Origin: Escherichia coli
GTDB lineage: Bacteria; Pseudomonadota; Gammaproteobacteria; Enterobacterales; Enterobacteriaceae
DNA: 64,000 nt
Strand: one strand, 5' to 3'
Assembly: GCF_024502345.1 (NCBI RefSeq)
Contig: NZ_JALDNN010000001.1
Both the position numbers and the translations under genes were made by a program. Every line of letters begins with the position of its first letter. Position 1 is the stretch's first letter. Below the pieces are notes generated by a model. That model made no database searches, was not told where the DNA came from, and saw only the letters and a program-made list of their open reading frames with translations. Positions 10,471 to 28,504 of this stretch are shown piece by piece.

Positions 10471-10500
10471 GATTGATAATTGTTATCGTTTGCATTATCG
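10471..10500 (+). promoter_or_regulatory. Fur box(es) in the cirA promoter
   Basis: GATTGATAATTGTTATCGTTTGCATTATCG matches the GATAATGATAATCATTATC Fur consensus; leaves a ~170-nt leader before cirA. Confidence 0.7.
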
Positions 10501-13550: not shown

Positions 13551-13774
13551 TCATCATACCGTTTATTCAGTGTGCTGTGAGTAACTTTCACTTCCGTATT
13601 TGCATAACGATGTTTTAACATCTGCTGATGAAAGGCAGCGGCAATTACAATAATTATCGCTGTGAATACTGGATTATGTGCGCCGCCTCACGCACAATAA
13701 TCAGGCTGTAAATCAGCTTAATAACTTTGCCCCCACGCAGGGCGGAGGCGTCACACCTGCAGGAGAAATCATAA

Positions 13775-14443
13775 ATGCCATCACTCAGTAAAGAAGCGGC
13801 CCTGGTTCATGAAGCGTTAGTTGCGCGAGGACTGGAAACACCGCTGCGCCCGCCCGTGCATGAAATGGATAACGAAACGCGCAAAAGCCTTATTGCTGGT
13901 CATATGACCGAAATCATGCAGCTGCTGAATCTCGACCTGGCTGATGACAGTTTGATGGAAACACCGCATCGCATCGCTAAAATGTATGTCGATGAAATTT
14001 TCTCCGGTCTGGATTACGCCAACTTCCCGAAAATCACCCTCATTGAAAACAAAATGAAGGTCGATGAAATGGTCACCGTGCGCGATATCACTCTGACCAG
14101 TACCTGTGAACACCATTTTGTTACCATCGATGGCAAAGCGACGGTGGCTTATATCCCGAAAGATTCGGTGATCGGTCTGTCAAAAATTAACCGTATTGTG
14201 CAGTTCTTTGCCCAGCGTCCGCAGGTGCAGGAACGTCTGACGCAGCAAATTCTCATTGCGCTACAAACGCTGCTGGGCACCAATAACGTGGCTGTCTCTA
14301 TCGACGCGGTGCATTACTGCGTGAAGGCGCGAGGCATCCGCGATGCAACCAGTGCCACGACAACGACCTCTCTTGGTGGATTGTTCAAATCCAGTCAGAA
14401 TACGCGCCACGAGTTTCTGCGCGCTGTGCGTCATCACAACTGA
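13775..14443 (+). CDS. folE: GTP cyclohydrolase I, 222 aa
   Basis: ORF track; length and family. Confidence 0.95.
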
Positions 14444-14459
14444 TTAAAAGGCAGGAACC

Positions 14460-15617
14460 ATGGAGCGCAACGTCACGCTCGATTTTGTTCGCGGCGTCGC
14501 CATTCTGGGGATCCTGCTATTAAACATCAGCGCCTTTGGGCTACCAAAGGCGGCTTATCTTAATCCCGCCTGGTACGGCGCTATTACGCCGCAGGATGCA
14601 TGGACCTGGGCATTTCTCGATCTCATCGGCCAGGTGAAATTCCTCACGCTTTTTGCGCTGCTGTTTGGTGCTGGCCTGCAAATGTTGCTGCCCCGTGGCA
14701 GACGCTGGATCCAGTCGCGGTTAACGCTGTTAGTCTTGCTGGGCTTTATTCACGGTTTATTGTTCTGGGACGGCGATATTCTGCTGGCTTACGGGCTGGT
14801 GGGCTTAATCTGCTGGCGGCTGGTGCGCGATGCGCCATCGGTAAAAAGCCTGTTTAATACCGGCGTCATGCTTTATCTGGTGGGGCTTGGCGTTTTGCTG
14901 TTATTGGGGTTGATTTCCGATAGCCAGACCAGCCGCGCCTGGACGCCGGATGCATCGGCTATTTTGTATGAAAAATACTGGAAGCTTCACGGCGGCGTTG
15001 AAGCGATCAGTAATCGTGCCGATGGTGTTGGCAACAGTTTACTGGCACTGGGCGCACAGTATGGCTGGCAACTGGCAGGGATGATGCTCATTGGTGCGGC
15101 GCTGATGCGCAGCGGCTGGCTGAAAGGGCAGTTCAGCTTACGTCACTATCGTCGTACTGGTTTTGTGCTGGCGGCGATTGGGGTGACCATTAACCTTCCT
15201 GCCATCGCCCTGCAATGGCAGCTGGACTGGGCGTATCGCTGGTGTGCCTTCTTACTTCAAATGCCGCGGGAACTGAGTGCGCCGTTTCAGGCGATTGGCT
15301 ATGCGTCGCTTTTTTATGGTTTCTGGCCGCAATTGAGCCGCTTTAAGCTGGTGCTTGCGATCGCCTGCGTCGGACGGATGGCGCTGACCAACTATCTATT
15401 GCAAACGCTGATTTGTACCACGCTTTTTTACCACCTCGGTTTGTTTATGCATTTTGACCGCCTGGAGCTGCTGGCGTTTGTTATTCCGGTATGGCTGGCG
15501 AATATCCTCTTCTCTGTTATCTGGCTGCGTTACTTCCGCCAGGGGCCGGTGGAATGGCTCTGGCGTCAGTTAACTTTGCGTGCTGCCGGACCGGCAATAT
15601 CTAAAACATCAAGATAA
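14460..15617 (+). CDS. yeiB: DUF418-family inner membrane protein, 385 aa
   Basis: ORF track; polytopic membrane protein 16 nt after folE (operon). Confidence 0.85.
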   Translation: MERNVTLDFVRGVAILGILLLNISAFGLPKAAYLNPAWYGAITPQDAWTWAFLDLIGQVKFLTLFALLFGAGLQMLLPRGRRWIQSRLTLLVLLGFIHGLLFWDGDILLAYGLVGLICWRLVRDAPSVKSLFNTGVMLYLVGLGVLLLLGLISDSQTSRAWTPDASAILYEKYWKLHGGVEAISNRADGVGNSLLALGAQYGWQLAGMMLIGAALMRSGWLKGQFSLRHYRRTGFVLAAIGVTINLPAIALQWQLDWAYRWCAFLLQMPRELSAPFQAIGYASLFYGFWPQLSRFKLVLAIACVGRMALTNYLLQTLICTTLFYHLGLFMHFDRLELLAFVIPVWLANILFSVIWLRYFRQGPVEWLWRQLTLRAAGPAISKTSR

Positions 15618-15647
15618 CGATCTGGATCACATTCGTTAACAAAACGG

Positions 15648-15663
15648 CTGTAACCGTTTCCAT
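15648..15663. promoter_or_regulatory. GalR/GalS-type operator upstream of galS
   Basis: CTGTAACCGTTTCCAT fits nTGnAAnCGnTTnCAn at every constrained position. Confidence 0.6.
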
Positions 15664-15666
15664 TGC

Positions 15667-15682
15667 TGTGACTCGATTCACG
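15667..15682. promoter_or_regulatory. CRP binding site in galS promoter
   Basis: TGTGA-CTCGAT-TCACG versus TGTGA-N6-TCACA. Confidence 0.6.
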
Positions 15683-15758
15683 AAGTCCTGTATTCAGTGC
15701 TGACAAAATAGCCGGCAGCAAGCAGTCATTTACTGCAATCTCATAACAGGTAGTGAAT

Positions 15759-16799
15759 ATGATCACCATTCGTGATGTAGCGCGTCAGGCTGGCGTCTCT
15801 GTGGCAACGGTTTCCCGGGTGCTCAATAACAGCACGCTGGTCAGTGCCGACACGCGTGAAGCAGTAATGAAAGCCGTGAGTGAGCTGGATTATCGGCCAA
15901 ACGCCAATGCCCAGGCGCTGGCAACTCAGGTTAGCGACACCATTGGCGTGGTGGTGATGGACGTTTCTGATGCGTTTTTCGGCGCGCTGATAAAAGCGGT
16001 GGATCTGGTCGCTCAGCAGCATCAGAAATACGTGCTAATCGGCAATAGCTATCATGAAGCGGAAAAAGAGCGTCACGCCATTGAGGTGTTAATTCGCCAG
16101 CGTTGTAATGCGTTGATTGTTCACTCAAAAGCATTGAGTGACGATGAACTGGCGCAATTTATGGATAACATTCCCGGTATGGTGTTAATCAACCGCGTTG
16201 TGCCGGGGTTCGCCCATCGTTGCGTTTGCCTGGATAATCTCAGCGGTGCCCGAATGGCGACGCGCATGTTGCTGAATAACGGTCATCAACGTATTGGTTA
16301 TCTTTCTTCCAGTCACGGCATTGAAGATGACGCCATGCGTAAAGCAGGCTGGATGAGTGCGTTGAAAGAGCAGGATATTATTCCGCCGGAAAGCTGGATT
16401 GGCACTGGCACGCCGGACATGCCGGGCGGTGAGGCGGCGATGGTTGAACTGCTGGGGCGCAATCTACAACTTACCGCTGTATTTGCTTATAACGACAATA
16501 TGGCTGCTGGCGCACTGACAGCATTAAAAGATAATGGCATTGCGATTCCGTTACATCTCTCAATCATCGGTTTCGATGATATTCCCATCGCCCGTTACAC
16601 CGACCCGCAATTAACGACCGTGCGTTATCCCATTGCTTCAATGGCTAAATTAGCCACCGAACTGGCCTTGCAGGGGGCAGCAGGCAATATTGATCCTCGT
16701 GCCAGCCACTGTTTTATGCCGACGTTAGTGCGTCGCCATTCTGTCGCAACGCGCCAGAATGCGGCGGCGATCACTAACTCAACAAATCAGGCGATGTAA
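15759..16799 (+). CDS. galS: LacI/GalR-family repressor GalS (346 aa from ATG; ORF track starts at GTG 15753)
   Basis: ORF track; [26 protein letters not shown]; synteny upstream of mglBAC. Confidence 0.9.
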
Positions 16800-16812
16800 C
16801 CGCTTTCAATCT

Positions 16813-16828
16813 GTGAGTGATTTCACAG
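16813..16828. promoter_or_regulatory. CRP binding site in the mglB promoter
   Basis: TGTGA-GTGATT-TCACA, perfect match to consensus half-sites. Confidence 0.7.
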
Positions 16829-17078
16829 TATCTTAACAATGTGATAGCTATGATTGCACCGTTTTAACGTTGTAACCCGTATGTAACAGTGAATAATCAC
16901 TTTCACCGAGGTAATAGCGTCATAACAACAATTAAAGCCGTTTTCTGGAGCGTTACCGGGCATGGAAGAACGAATTTTAAAAAGTGAGCTTCGGCGTTCA
17001 GTAACACTTCATTAACTCTACTGCCCCGCCGAGCATTTATCTCAAGCACTACCCTGCATAAGAAAAACCGGAGATACC

Positions 17079-18077
17079 ATGAATAAGAAGGTGTTAACCC
17101 TGTCTGCTGTGATGGCCAGCATGTTATTCGGTGCCGCTGCACACGCTGCTGATACTCGCATTGGTGTAACAATCTATAAGTACGACGATAACTTTATGTC
17201 TGTAGTGCGCAAGGCTATTGAGCAAGATGCGAAAGCCGCGCCAGATGTTCAGCTGCTGATGAATGATTCTCAGAATGACCAGTCCAAGCAGAACGATCAG
17301 ATCGACGTATTGCTGGCGAAAGGGGTGAAGGCACTGGCAATCAACCTGGTTGACCCGGCAGCTGCGGGTACGGTGATTGAGAAAGCGCGTGGGCAAAACG
17401 TGCCGGTGGTTTTCTTCAACAAAGAACCGTCTCGTAAGGCGCTGGATAGCTACGACAAAGCCTACTACGTTGGCACTGACTCCAAAGAGTCCGGCATTAT
17501 TCAGGGCGATTTGATTGCTAAACACTGGGCGGCGAATCAGGGTTGGGATCTGAACAAAGACGGTCAGATTCAGTTCGTACTGCTGAAAGGTGAACCGGGC
17601 CATCCGGATGCAGAAGCACGTACCACTTACGTGATTAAAGAATTGAACGATAAAGGCATCAAAACTGAACAGTTACAGTTAGATACCGCAATGTGGGACA
17701 CCGCTCAGGCGAAAGATAAGATGGACGCCTGGCTGTCTGGCCCGAACGCCAACAAAATCGAAGTGGTTATCGCCAACAACGATGCGATGGCAATGGGCGC
17801 GGTAGAAGCACTGAAAGCACACAACAAGTCCAGCATTCCGGTGTTTGGCGTCGATGCGCTGCCAGAAGCGCTGGCGCTGGTGAAATCCGGTGCACTGGCG
17901 GGCACAGTACTGAACGATGCTAACAACCAGGCGAAAGCGACCTTTGATCTGGCGAAAAACCTGGCCGATGGCAAAGGTGCGGCTGATGGCACCAACTGGA
18001 AAATCGACAACAAAGTGGTCCGCGTACCTTATGTTGGCGTAGATAAAGACAACCTGGCTGAATTCAGCAAGAAATAA
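17079..18077 (+). CDS. mglB: Galactose/glucose ABC transporter periplasmic binding protein, 332 aa
   Basis: ORF track; signal peptide; family and synteny. Confidence 0.95.
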
Positions 18078-18085
18078 GACTGATT

Positions 18086-18113
18086 GGGCGCAGTCGTTTA
18101 CTGCGCCCTTATT
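18086..18113 (+). terminator. Intra-operon hairpin (partial terminator / mRNA stabiliser) between mglB and mglA
   Basis: GGGCGCAGT-CGTTT-ACTGCGCCC 9-bp stem followed by TTATTG. Confidence 0.6.
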
Positions 18114-18137
18114 GTATGGCCAACAAGGTAAAATTAT

Positions 18138-19658
18138 ATGGTCAGCTCAACGACTCCGTCTTCCGGGGAATACTTGTTGGAAATGAGCGGTATCAACAAG
18201 TCCTTTCCTGGTGTTAAGGCACTTGATAACGTTAATTTAAAAGTCCGGCCACATTCTATCCATGCATTAATGGGGGAAAACGGTGCAGGAAAATCGACAT
18301 TATTAAAATGCCTGTTTGGTATTTATCAAAAAGACTCCGGCACCATTTTATTCCAGGGTAAAGAGATCGATTTCCATTCCGCCAAAGAGGCACTGGAAAA
18401 TGGTATTTCGATGGTACACCAGGAGTTAAACCTGGTATTACAACGTTCGGTGATGGATAACATGTGGCTGGGGCGATATCCCACCAAAGGCATGTTTGTC
18501 GATCAGGACAAAATGTACCGCGAAACCAAAGCGATTTTTGATGAACTGGATATTGATATCGATCCGCGTGCGCGCGTCGGCACATTATCCGTTTCGCAAA
18601 TGCAGATGATCGAAATCGCAAAAGCGTTTTCCTATAACGCGAAAATTGTGATTATGGATGAACCGACTTCTTCGTTAACCGAAAAAGAGGTCAATCATCT
18701 GTTCACTATTATTCGTAAATTAAAAGAGCGCGGCTGCGGTATTGTTTATATCTCGCATAAAATGGAAGAAATCTTCCAGTTATGTGATGAAGTTACCGTA
18801 TTGCGCGACGGTCAGTGGATCGCCACCGAACCGCTGGCAGGACTGACGATGGACAAGATCATCGCCATGATGGTTGGGCGTTCTCTTAACCAGCGTTTCC
18901 CTGACAAAGAAAACAAGCCGGGCGAAGTCATCCTCGAGGTGCGTAACCTGACGTCACTGCGCCAGCCGTCGATCCGTGATGTCTCGTTTGATCTGCATAA
19001 AGGGGAGATCCTCGGTATTGCCGGTCTGGTGGGGGCGAAACGTACCGATATTGTTGAGACGTTATTTGGTATTCGCGAGAAATCGGCTGGCACCATTACG
19101 TTGCACGGCAAAAAGATCAATAACCATAATGCCAACGAAGCCATAAACCACGGATTTGCACTGGTAACTGAGGAGCGCCGCTCAACGGGGATTTATGCCT
19201 ATCTGGATATTGGTTTTAACTCGTTAATTTCCAATATTCGCAACTACAAAAATAAAGTTGGTTTACTGGATAACTCGCGGATGAAAAGCGATACCCAGTG
19301 GGTGATTGATTCGATGCGGGTAAAAACACCGGGGCATCGGACGCAAATTGGTTCGCTCTCCGGTGGTAATCAGCAAAAGGTGATTATTGGGCGCTGGCTA
19401 CTAACGCAACCGGAAATATTAATGCTCGATGAACCGACGCGCGGTATTGATGTCGGGGCGAAGTTTGAGATCTATCAGTTAATTGCCGAACTGGCGAAGA
19501 AAGGCAAGGGGATTATTATTATCTCCTCTGAAATGCCTGAGTTGTTAGGGATAACAGACCGTATTCTGGTCATGAGCAATGGTCTCGTTTCCGGAATTGT
19601 CGATACAAAAACAACAACGCAAAACGAAATTCTGCGTCTTGCGTCTTTGCACCTTTAA
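18138..19658 (+). CDS. mglA: Galactose ABC transporter ATP-binding protein (duplicated ABC domains), 506 aa
   Basis: ORF track; two Walker A motifs (GENGAGKST and a second ABC domain). Confidence 0.95.
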
Positions 19659-19673
19659 GATTAGGGGCTTCCC

Positions 19674-20684
19674 ATGAGTGCGTTAAATAAGAAAAGTTTT
19701 CTTACTTACCTGAAAGAGGGCGGTATTTACGTCGTTCTTTTAGTTTTGCTGGCGATTATTATTTTCCAGGACCCAACATTTTTAAGTCTGTTGAACTTAA
19801 GTAATATTCTCACCCAGTCATCGGTGCGTATTATTATCGCGCTCGGCGTGGCAGGGTTAATTGTCACCCAGGGGACCGACCTTTCTGCGGGGCGTCAGGT
19901 AGGGCTGGCGGCAGTGGTGGCAGCGACATTATTGCAGTCCATGGATAACGCCAACAAAGTGTTCCCGGAAATGGCGACGATGCCGATTGCGCTGGTTATT
20001 CTGATTGTCTGTGCCATTGGTGCGGTGATCGGTTTGATCAACGGTCTGATTATCGCTTATCTCAACGTGACGCCGTTCATTACCACGCTCGGCACGATGA
20101 TCATCGTCTATGGCATCAACTCGCTCTATTACGACTTTGTCGGGGCGTCGCCAATTTCTGGATTTGACAGTGGCTTCTCTACCTTTGCTCAGGGCTTTGT
20201 CGCGCTGGGGAGTTTCCGTCTCTCTTACATCACCTTCTACGCGTTGATTGCGGTGGCGTTCGTCTGGGTGTTGTGGAACAAAACCCGCTTCGGTAAGAAC
20301 ATTTTTGCTATTGGCGGTAACCCGGAAGCGGCAAAAGTATCTGGTGTCAATGTCGGCCTGAACCTGCTGATGATCTACGCGTTGTCTGGTGTGTTCTATG
20401 CCTTCGGCGGGATGTTAGAAGCCGGACGTATCGGCTCTGCCACCAACAACCTCGGCTTTATGTATGAACTGGATGCTATCGCGGCGTGCGTGGTAGGCGG
20501 TGTATCGTTCAGCGGCGGTGTGGGGACGGTGATTGGCGTGGTGACCGGGGTAATTATTTTTACCGTCATCAACTATGGCCTGACGTATATCGGCGTAAAC
20601 CCATACTGGCAGTACATCATCAAAGGGGCGATTATTATCTTCGCCGTAGCGCTGGATTCACTGAAATACGCGCGTAAGAAGTGA
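19674..20684 (+). CDS. mglC: Galactose ABC transporter permease, 336 aa
   Basis: ORF track; polytopic permease; synteny. Confidence 0.95.
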   Translation: MSALNKKSFLTYLKEGGIYVVLLVLLAIIIFQDPTFLSLLNLSNILTQSSVRIIIALGVAGLIVTQGTDLSAGRQVGLAAVVAATLLQSMDNANKVFPEMATMPIALVILIVCAIGAVIGLINGLIIAYLNVTPFITTLGTMIIVYGINSLYYDFVGASPISGFDSGFSTFAQGFVALGSFRLSYITFYALIAVAFVWVLWNKTRFGKNIFAIGGNPEAAKVSGVNVGLNLLMIYALSGVFYAFGGMLEAGRIGSATNNLGFMYELDAIAACVVGGVSFSGGVGTVIGVVTGVIIFTVINYGLTYIGVNPYWQYIIKGAIIIFAVALDSLKYARKK

Positions 20685-20743
20685 TGTGATTGTGGTCCGC
20701 ATTCGGTCATAAACGCACATAACATCATGATCTGTGTGGTTTT

Positions 20744-20917
20744 GTAGGCCGGATAAGGCGTTCACGCCGCATCCGGCGACAGGAGCCAAATGCCGGATGC
20801 AACGCTGGCGCGTTTTATCCGGCCTACAATGAGTTCAACATACTGATTTGTATGGTTTTGTAGGCCGGATAAGGCGTTCAAGCCGCATCCGGCGACAGGA
20901 ACTAAATGCCGGATGCG
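20744..20917. repeat. BIME: cluster of about 4 REP units in alternating orientation
   Basis: Repeated GCCGGATAAGGCGTTCACGCCGCATCCGGC and its reverse complement. Confidence 0.85.
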
Positions 20918-23394: not shown

Positions 23395-23436
23395 GTGATC
23401 TTCCTTAATGCTATGAGTAATTAAGGCGAACGCTAA

Positions 23437-23563
23437 ATATACTCGTCATACTTCAAGTTGCATGTGCTGCGTCTGCGTTCGCTCACCCCAGTCACTTACT
23501 TATGTAAGCTCCTGGGGACTCACTCACTTGTCGCCTTCCTGCAACTCGAATTATTTAGAGTAT
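23437..23563. repeat. ERIC (IRU) element, full-length about 127 bp
   Basis: TATACTCGTCATACTTCAAGTTGCATGTGCTGCG ... GAATTATTTAGAGTATA imperfect palindrome characteristic of ERIC. Confidence 0.8.
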
Positions 23564-23712
23564 AAATATTGCGTGCTGATATTAAGGCTATGCGCGTGGG
23601 GAAATTTATACTGTGAAAGGATTCACAAATAGCTGCGGTTCAGAATGTTATATCCGCAGCTTATTGAGTGAAGTAATAATTATTCTCAATAATTAACAGA
23701 AAAGAGAAAATA

Positions 23713-25767: not shown

Positions 25768-25783
25768 TGTGATCTGAATCTCA
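25768..25783. promoter_or_regulatory. CRP site in the cdd promoter
   Basis: TGTGA-TCTGAA-TCTCA, about 70 nt upstream of the cdd start. Confidence 0.5.
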
Positions 25784-26964: not shown

Positions 26965-27166
26965 TTAATTCGTAAAACGTGCTACCGATCACATTAAGAA
27001 ATCAGCGCTTATTTTTTCGCTCCCCGGCATTACGCAATGCGCAACGAACTCAGGCATACATCAAGCATAGAGAGGGATTGCAGTTTGCAGCAATCCCTCT
27101 TTGTAGACCTTTAATCCGCTGACCATAGGCGCTAACATAGCGCCTCATTATTTTGCGGGTGATGAT

Positions 27167-28138: not shown

Positions 28139-28504
28139 GAGACAATGAATCGCTTATTCAGCTTCATCATCTTGTTGCGCTCCTTTCATGAACTAAGCCA
28201 CATATTGCCACTGGCGCAAGGTGCGCGCAGAGGGAGGACAATCGCCTCCTCCCCCTGCACCCCCGGGCTCTGGCGAACAAAATCGCCGCTGCGCGGTACC
28301 TTCAGCTTATCCCCTTCGGCTACCGGGTCGGGCGCGAGGTAACGTCCTTGTAAGACGCGCCCTCAGCCCACATCCATGTGGGCTGCCCCGGCCTTCGGGG
28401 AACGCTTCAGCGATTTTGACGCCACCAACACCGGAGCTGTTTGCAAATCAAGTACAAAAAATATCTAGTTCCTGACCTGACAACTTATATGCCATATCTG
28501 ATTT

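Follow-up and report, generated by a model that had tools for sequence, protein, structure and literature searches.

The galS-mglBAC region of Escherichia coli raises the question of which sites control its two promoters, and whether one operator and one CRP site at each of them make up the whole of the conserved control DNA. A preliminary description of the DNA considered here had assigned to the galS/mglBAC regulon a GalR/GalS operator next to a CRP site in front of galS, and a perfect CRP site at the mglB promoter. Our analysis indicates that these sites are almost certainly the canonical control regions of two E. coli gal-regulon promoters, and the operators and proximal CRP sites are already known biology. 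The fresh point is that each promoter has a second conserved CRP-type site, some 50 bp further upstream, a candidate in the case of mglB and, in the case of galS, a site already present in preprints of 2025-2026.

The window, i.e., the whole stretch of DNA that was analyzed, is 64,000 nucleotides long. Its positions 13700-20800 hold folE-yeiB-galS-mglBAC and correspond to 2236.7-2243.7 kb of K-12 MG1655, on the reverse strand; a window position p is converted to K-12 by K12 = 2241779 - (p - 15648). The identity to K-12 is 98.9% (ungapped alignment of 7101 bp), and the strain of the window is therefore not K-12. The two sequences differ at 77 positions, all of them outside the binding sites. 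Of these, the intergenic ones are a SNP at 15715, position -2 of the galS promoter (galSp), with G in the window for C in K-12, and three in the mglB leader (16904, 16905 and 16915). The gene order yeiB-galS-mglBAC, the operator and proximal CRP bases and the start-site positions are otherwise those of K-12 galSp and mglBp as given in RegulonDB/EcoCyc. Of 5426 complete E. coli genomes, 5425 match a 1.5-kb query around the sites, and the genes annotated in the matching segment are yeiB, galS and mglB. The upstream open reading frame (15759-16799, plus strand) encodes GalS, a LacI/GalR-family isorepressor of 346 residues: its product matches the NCBIfam equivalog NF007706 over residues 1-346 of 346, with 746.6 bits against a cutoff of 555, in agreement with the RefSeq annotation of the matching genomes. 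The product of the downstream frame (17079-18077) is MglB, based on its match to NF011924 (659.9 bits, cutoff 420).

The K-12 annotation of galSp and mglBp reportedly goes back to the original footprinting papers of Weickert and Adhya in 1993 and Hogg et al. in 1991. The RegulonDB/EcoCyc positions of the sites at both promoters are taken here second-hand, as quoted in the supplement of the Reg-Seq study, and the transcription starts are derived from them: 15717 for galS (from -42.5, -61.5 and +92.5) and 16861 for mglB (from -41.5 and -59.5). The galS core promoter (15701-15717, plus strand) comprises an extended -10 element, TGaCAAAAT at 15701-15709, and the start A at 15717; its CTG..CA.AAT bases are conserved among orthologs. 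The mglB core promoter (16849-16861, plus strand) has the -10 element TATGAT at 16849-16854 and a conserved GCTATGAT. A consensus promoter/terminator scan missed both of these real promoters, and found no yeiB terminator. The mglB start is followed by a leader of 218 nt (16861-17078, plus strand). Among 81 orthologous sequences, 77 have a leader of about 190-220 nt, the start motif of mglB not being found in the remaining four. No conserved RNA structure was detected in 76 distinct leaders (RNAalifold -0.27), and no Rfam family was found in 15400-18300 at E<=1.

The operator recognized by GalR and GalS is a hyphenated dyad of 16 bp, GTGNAANCGNTTNCAC, with a central CG, and genetic data show its positions 3, 5, 9 and 15 to be essential (PMC5110547). 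Within the 64 kb, only two stretches match the pattern TGNAANCGNTTNCA, namely 15649-15662 and 16795-16808, for an expected count of 0.13. The first match is the external operator of galS, OE (CTGTAACCGTTTCCAT, 15648-15663), centred at -61.5. The second is the mgl operator (ATGTAACCGCTTTCAA, 16794-16809), centred at -59.5, within which lies the galS stop codon TAA (16797-16799). Both agree with the pattern at each of the ten inner positions that are constrained, among them 3, 5, 9 and 15, as had been claimed for the galS operator, and both are identical base for base to the K-12 sequences.

A matrix scan, which the preliminary description had proposed as a check, leads to the same two sites. 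The GalR matrix was constructed from 16 ChIP-chip sites (PMC5110547, Table 3), from which every galS and mglB site was left out, and its training sites score 11.9-19.1 bits. OE and the mgl operator rank first and second in the window, with 19.5 and 17.3 bits, whereas 0.03 sites of at least 17.3 bits are expected in a scan of 64 kb. The outcome that was to refute the description, scores under the threshold, is clearly absent for GalR/GalS. In K-12, GalR ChIP-chip peaks at 2241771 (ATGGAAACGGTTACA) and 2240625 (TTGAAAGCGGTTACA) (PMC5110547) correspond to OE and the mgl operator, respectively, and RegulonDB, as quoted in the Reg-Seq supplement, places GalR/GalS at -61.5 of galSp and -59.5 of mglBp. 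A G-to-T mutation in the mgl operator, 3 bp from the end of galS, is recurrent under glucose limitation and leads to semi-constitutive expression of mglBAC (PMC2763269); it falls at 16796, which is position 3 of the operator. A full-text literature search with the operator sequences as queries returned no match. Real operators can, as here, be located from sequence alone.

The proximal CRP site of galS, CRP1 (15664-15685, with the core TGTGACTCGATTCACG at 15667-15682), is centred at -42.5, a class II position. Its core, TGTGA-N6-TCACG, agrees with the CRP palindrome at 9 of 10 positions, the one mismatch being TCACG in place of TCACA. The statement that the operator directly abuts the CRP site is correct for the 22-bp site, while 3 bp separate the OE 16-mer from the TGTGA pentamer. 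The proximal site of mglB (16809-16830, with the core TGTGAGTGATTTCACA at 16812-16827), centred at -41.5, is also at a class II position, and its 22-mer shares 1 bp with the mgl operator. The perfect TGTGA-N6-TCACA site reported at mglB is confirmed: the core is a palindrome at 10 of 10 positions, and this pattern has two exact matches in the window for 0.02 expected. The end of the region had been set at 16828, which is one base too far, since the core ends at 16827. The joint pattern of operator and CRP site occurs once in the window, for 0.00 expected.

Both proximal CRP sites are identical to those of K-12, for which RegulonDB, again through the Reg-Seq supplement, lists a single CRP site per promoter, at -42.5 of galSp and -41.5 of mglBp. 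The activity of the galS promoter increases with cAMP (PMC2516365). In the published footprints, comparison with which was the other check that had been proposed, Reg-Seq recovered both proximal CRP sites as in vivo activator footprints, but it recovered a GalR/GalS footprint at neither galSp nor mglBp; the ChIP-chip peaks do agree with both operators. The assignment to the galS/mglBAC regulon is upheld by the identity of the sites to those of K-12, by the RegulonDB positions and by the GalR peaks.

The outcome of the CRP matrix was less simple. Table 1 of the Footprint-seq study (PMC12871828) gives 40 high-affinity in vitro sites; 37 of them were used to make this matrix, the three located in this chromosome segment being left out. 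The proximal galS site scores 8.2 bits (rank 25) and the proximal mglB site 5.95 bits (rank 47), both below the training range of 10.2-22.2 bits, because their spacers lack the TC..GA that the high-affinity sites prefer. Scoring by this matrix alone would not call either proximal CRP site, yet both give activator footprints in vivo and are invariant in orthologs. The matrix thus under-scores established sites, and a threshold on its scores is unsound as a criterion for refuting a CRP site.

The conservation of the sites was assessed in one genome per species, which gave 80 galS loci from about 20 enterobacterial genera, including Escherichia, Citrobacter, Salmonella, Enterobacter, Klebsiella, Raoultella, Kosakonia and Kluyvera. 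The OE pattern is conserved in 81 of 81 orthologous sequences, and the mgl operator in all 80 that have enough downstream flank. Upstream of galS, TG.AA.CG.TT.CA is followed in every one of the 81 by TGTGA-N6-TCACG at a fixed offset of 18 nt; even the imperfect TCACG half is invariant, while the 6-bp spacer varies freely. The perfect CRP core of mglB is present in 80/80 orthologs, with a fixed offset of 17 nt from the operator. The N positions of the operators vary widely, whereas the constrained bases and the operator-CRP spacing do not vary at all. The place where galS ends varies: in most genera GalS has 340 residues and its stop codon lies 12-16 nt upstream of the mgl operator, while in E. 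coli a TGA-to-TCA change adds six codons, and the reading frame runs on to the TAA that lies within the operator. Among 5425 E. coli genomes, the 80-bp control region of galS is unchanged in 5064 and that of mglB in 3961, and the variants that were inspected have changes only at unconstrained positions. Strong purifying selection acts on the operators and proximal CRP sites throughout the Enterobacteriaceae.

Motifs that are short and degenerate can of course be matched by chance, and the CRP matrix indeed returns 26 sites of at least 8 bits in the window where 14 are expected. That the matches described above are such accidents, with no regulatory role, is nevertheless hardly credible: the expected counts of the operator, CRP-core and joint patterns are the 0.13, 0.02 and 0.00 already given, the sites occupy canonical promoter positions and are conserved across genera, and the K-12 data (ChIP-chip, Reg-Seq and operator mutations) support them.

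The internal operator of galS, OI (GTGGCAACGGTTTCCC, 15801-15816), is centred at +92.5, in the galS codons for the helix-turn-helix. It has two mismatches to the operator pattern and scores 11.2 bits with the GalR matrix. OI is listed at 2241611-2241626 of K-12 (site 2241619), where it was inferred beneath a ChIP-chip peak (PMC5110547), and it is annotated at +91.5/+92.5 of galSp in RegulonDB, as quoted in the Reg-Seq supplement. Conservation of OI was not found outside Escherichia: the orthologs have 3-6 mismatches, and the bases that vary are precisely the third ones of the codons. Selection therefore does not preserve the likeness of OI to an operator. OI, the mgl operator and the distal CRP-type sites at -93.5 had not been part of the preliminary description.

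Upstream of OE, a block of about 40 bp (15606-15646) is as conserved among orthologs as the operator itself. It contains a second CRP site, CRP2 (GATAACGATCTGGATCACATTC, 15613-15634, core 15616-15631), whose centre at 15623.5 corresponds to -93.5 and which overlaps the stop codon TAA of yeiB (15615-15617). The right half of CRP2 is a perfect CRP half-site, and the variation among orthologs is confined to two central bases of the spacer. It scores 14.2 bits with the CRP matrix (rank 5 in the window), and the distance between the centres of CRP2 and CRP1 is exactly 51 bp in 81/81 orthologs. The Footprint-seq study, which identified 1,217 CRP-bound regions, reports in its Table 1 a novel CRP site centred at K-12 2241803 with the sequence aaTGTGAtccagaTCGTTatc, a Kd of 7.5 nM and galS as the gene (PMC12871828, a 2026 preprint); after coordinate conversion, this site is CRP2. 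The Reg-Seq preprint describes an activator at about -95 of galSp, whose effect is clearest in stationary phase, on acetate and on galactose, and does not name the factor. We take this activator to be CRP bound to the site found by Footprint-seq, CRP2. Between CRP2 and OE lies an A-rich stretch (GTTAACAAAAC, 15635-15645), near-invariant in 78 distinct orthologous sequences, which is possibly a docking site for the C-terminal domain of the RNA polymerase alpha subunit.

The conserved block could also bind some activator that is not CRP, or be an element sensitive to Dam methylation by virtue of its two GATC sequences, the CRP-like half being incidental. The Reg-Seq authors did not identify the factor at -95, and the block keeps both of its GATC sites, at a distance of 6 bp, without change. 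The left half of CRP2, TAACGA, is likewise invariant in all orthologs, although it is a poor CRP half-site, and a weak half-site is not enough by itself to explain such invariance. Part of it, however, is accounted for by the Arg-stop codons of yeiB, and GATC at these positions belongs to the CRP consensus itself. Moreover, purified CRP protects exactly CRP2 in vitro, with a Kd of about 7.5 nM, the conditions under which the footprint at -95 is strongest would be those of high cAMP, and a centre at -93.5 with an invariant spacing of 51 bp to CRP1 suits a tandem CRP layout. We consider it unlikely that the block is anything but a CRP site.

A motif at the same distance is found at mglB. The candidate distal CRP site of this promoter (16757-16778, with the core TGCGGCGGCGATCACT at 16760-16775) is centred at 16767.5, i.e., -93.5, within the last codons of galS. 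TG[CT]G-N7-TCAC is present at this position in 81/81 orthologs, 52 bp (70 sequences) or 51 bp (11 sequences) upstream of the proximal site. Its conservation across the orthologs leads us to hypothesize that it is a distal CRP site.

The motif lies wholly in coding sequence, so that it could instead be a by-product of a conserved C-terminal peptide of GalS (..V/A-x-ITN), combined with codon preference, rather than a site in the DNA. The residues Ile-Thr-Asn are conserved, the E. coli version of the motif is weak (TGCGG...TCACT, 5.2 bits, rank 64 in the window with the CRP matrix), and Reg-Seq found no new site at mglBp. Yet the peptide tail encoded over the motif exists in 57 variants, and TG[CT]G is retained over the codon pairs Asn-Ala, Thr-Val, Ile-Val, Ser-Val and Phe-Val. 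Three third-codon positions, 16760, 16763 and 16772, which are synonymous, are invariant in the 81 sequences, compared to 3.3% of the galS third positions overall. In Kluyvera, the peptide is altered and the match to CRP becomes better (TGTGC-N6-TCACG). The position of the motif also mirrors that of the documented distal site of galS. An origin in the protein sequence is a real possibility, against which we lean only slightly.

The mechanism established for the two control regions, with which all the present results agree, is as follows. At either promoter, cAMP-CRP binds as a dimer centred at -41.5 or -42.5, overlaps the -35 region and activates RNA polymerase as in class II promoters. A dimer of GalS or GalR on the adjacent 16-bp dyad operator, at -59.5 or -61.5, blocks this activation, and D-galactose releases the repressor. 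The expression of galS is thus both CRP-activated and autoregulated, and that of mglBAC CRP-activated and repressed by GalS/GalR. Through GalS, the control of the gal genes becomes an incoherent feed-forward loop (PMC2516365). A distal CRP dimer at -93.5 may make a class I-type contact with another alpha C-terminal domain, which might dock on the A-rich stretch, and a repressor bound near -60 would then occupy the place where the alpha domains bind, and so antagonize both CRP dimers.

The arrangement resembles that of two known systems. The P1 promoter of galETKM (OE at -60.5, CRP at -41.5, OI at +53.5) likewise combines a class II CRP site with a GalR/GalS operator that lies some 19 bp further upstream. 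An internal operator is common to galETKM and galS, where it is 153 bp from OE, but galS and mglB each have a single promoter, whereas galETKM has P1 and P2. No CRP-like site was seen by eye at -93.5 of K-12 galE P1. The second system is that of the CytR-regulated class III promoters (deoCp2 and cdd), in which CRP sites at about -41 and -93 flank a LacI-family repressor, a layout like that proposed for galS and mglB. In class III promoters, two CRP dimers activate in synergy from sites on one face of the helix. A centre at -93.5 is a characteristic class III position, of which deoC is the CRP-CytR-CRP example (PMC5957442). The score of GalS with the CytR model is 213 bits, which marks it as a paralog. 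The operator of CytR itself is weak, and this repressor relies on contacts with the two CRP dimers; GalS and GalR, in contrast, have a strong dyad operator right beside the proximal CRP site, and are not known to require CRP.

Both promoters look like class III promoters, in that each carries a conserved CRP-type site at -93.5 and an operator flanked by two CRP sites. For galS taken separately, this reading is probable. The full proposal, according to which galSp and mglBp are both class III "sandwich" promoters, the activator at -95 is CRP, the A-rich stretch is a dock for the alpha domain and the mglB site is written over codons of galS, is more tentative, and we regard its chances as not quite even.

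What the present analysis adds is the link between a novel Footprint-seq site, an unexplained activator footprint in Reg-Seq and a deep conservation with exact spacing. If both promoters do receive CRP at two positions, quantitative models of the gal feed-forward loop that include one CRP site per promoter omit a second CRP input, and would need to be revised. The conservation of the distal motif of mglB suggests that the mglB promoter reaches into the coding sequence of galS; if it is indeed a CRP site, selection at synonymous positions would maintain it throughout the Enterobacteriaceae.

The third-ranking match in the window to the GalR matrix, which was built from 16 ChIP-chip sites, is TGTTATCGTTTGCA (10481-10494, 14.7 bits). 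It falls between lysP and cirA, preceding the start of cirA (10670) by about 190 bp, and is the counterpart of the 'F13' GalR operator TTGTTATCGTTTGCAT of the reference strain K-12 MG1655 (2246944-2246959; PMC5110547). F13 was defined by 3C, and none of the ChIP-chip peaks given in the same study is at this operator (PMC5110547).

The CRP matrix, built from high-affinity in vitro Footprint-seq sites, has its four best matches in the window inside yeiL (1667-1682), upstream of cdd (25768-25783), at dusC/yohJ (26978-26993) and at the 5' end of rihB (2331-2346). The match that precedes cdd by about 60-70 bp is presumably the known proximal CRP site of this gene. Those in yeiL and at dusC/yohJ are 'novel' Footprint-seq sites (K-12 2255813 and 2230563, respectively).

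The yeiS-preT intergenic region contains the second perfect CRP palindrome of the window, TGTGAAAGGATTCACA (23612-23627), which scores just 8.3 bits with the high-affinity matrix. The palindrome precedes the start of preT by about 100 bp in K-12; in the window, about 124 bp of extra sequence (23432-23576), missing in K-12, lies between the two. This segment, which includes GAGTCCCCAGGAGCTTACATAAGTAAGTGACTGGGGTGAGCGAACGCAG, resembles an ERIC/IRU repeat element. Between yohP and dusC, 272 bp (28157-28428) align to K-12 2229106-2229376 in the orientation opposite to that of all neighbouring sequence, with an identity of only 87.9%. This pattern points to either a short inversion or a repeat-element polymorphism in inverted orientation.

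Both yeiB and galS terminate within protein-binding sites of the promoter of the next gene. The yeiB stop codon (15615-15617) is within the distal galS CRP site, and the E. coli galS stop codon (16797-16799) is the TAA of the TGTAA half-site of the mgl operator; in most other genera, galS stops six codons earlier. No intrinsic terminator was detected on the + strand between yeiB and galS (15618-15716), so galS may be transcribed by read-through from folE-yeiB without the need for CRP.

Downstream of galS, the 218 nt mglB leader (16861-17078) has conserved patches and a length that is stable across genera (about 190-220 nt). RNAalifold gave no conserved RNA structure for this leader (-0.27), and it has no match in Rfam. 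The mglB leader of Yersinia has the same length and an unrelated sequence (PMC3119520). In the mglB-mglA spacer, the mglB stop codon is immediately followed by a GC-rich hairpin, GGGCGCAGT-cgttt-ACTGCGCCC, and then by TTATTGT (18085-18112); two bases in or adjoining the loop (18096-18097) differ between the window and K-12. The hairpin looks like a partial terminator or an mRNA-stabilising element, and it could set the ratio of mglB to mglA.
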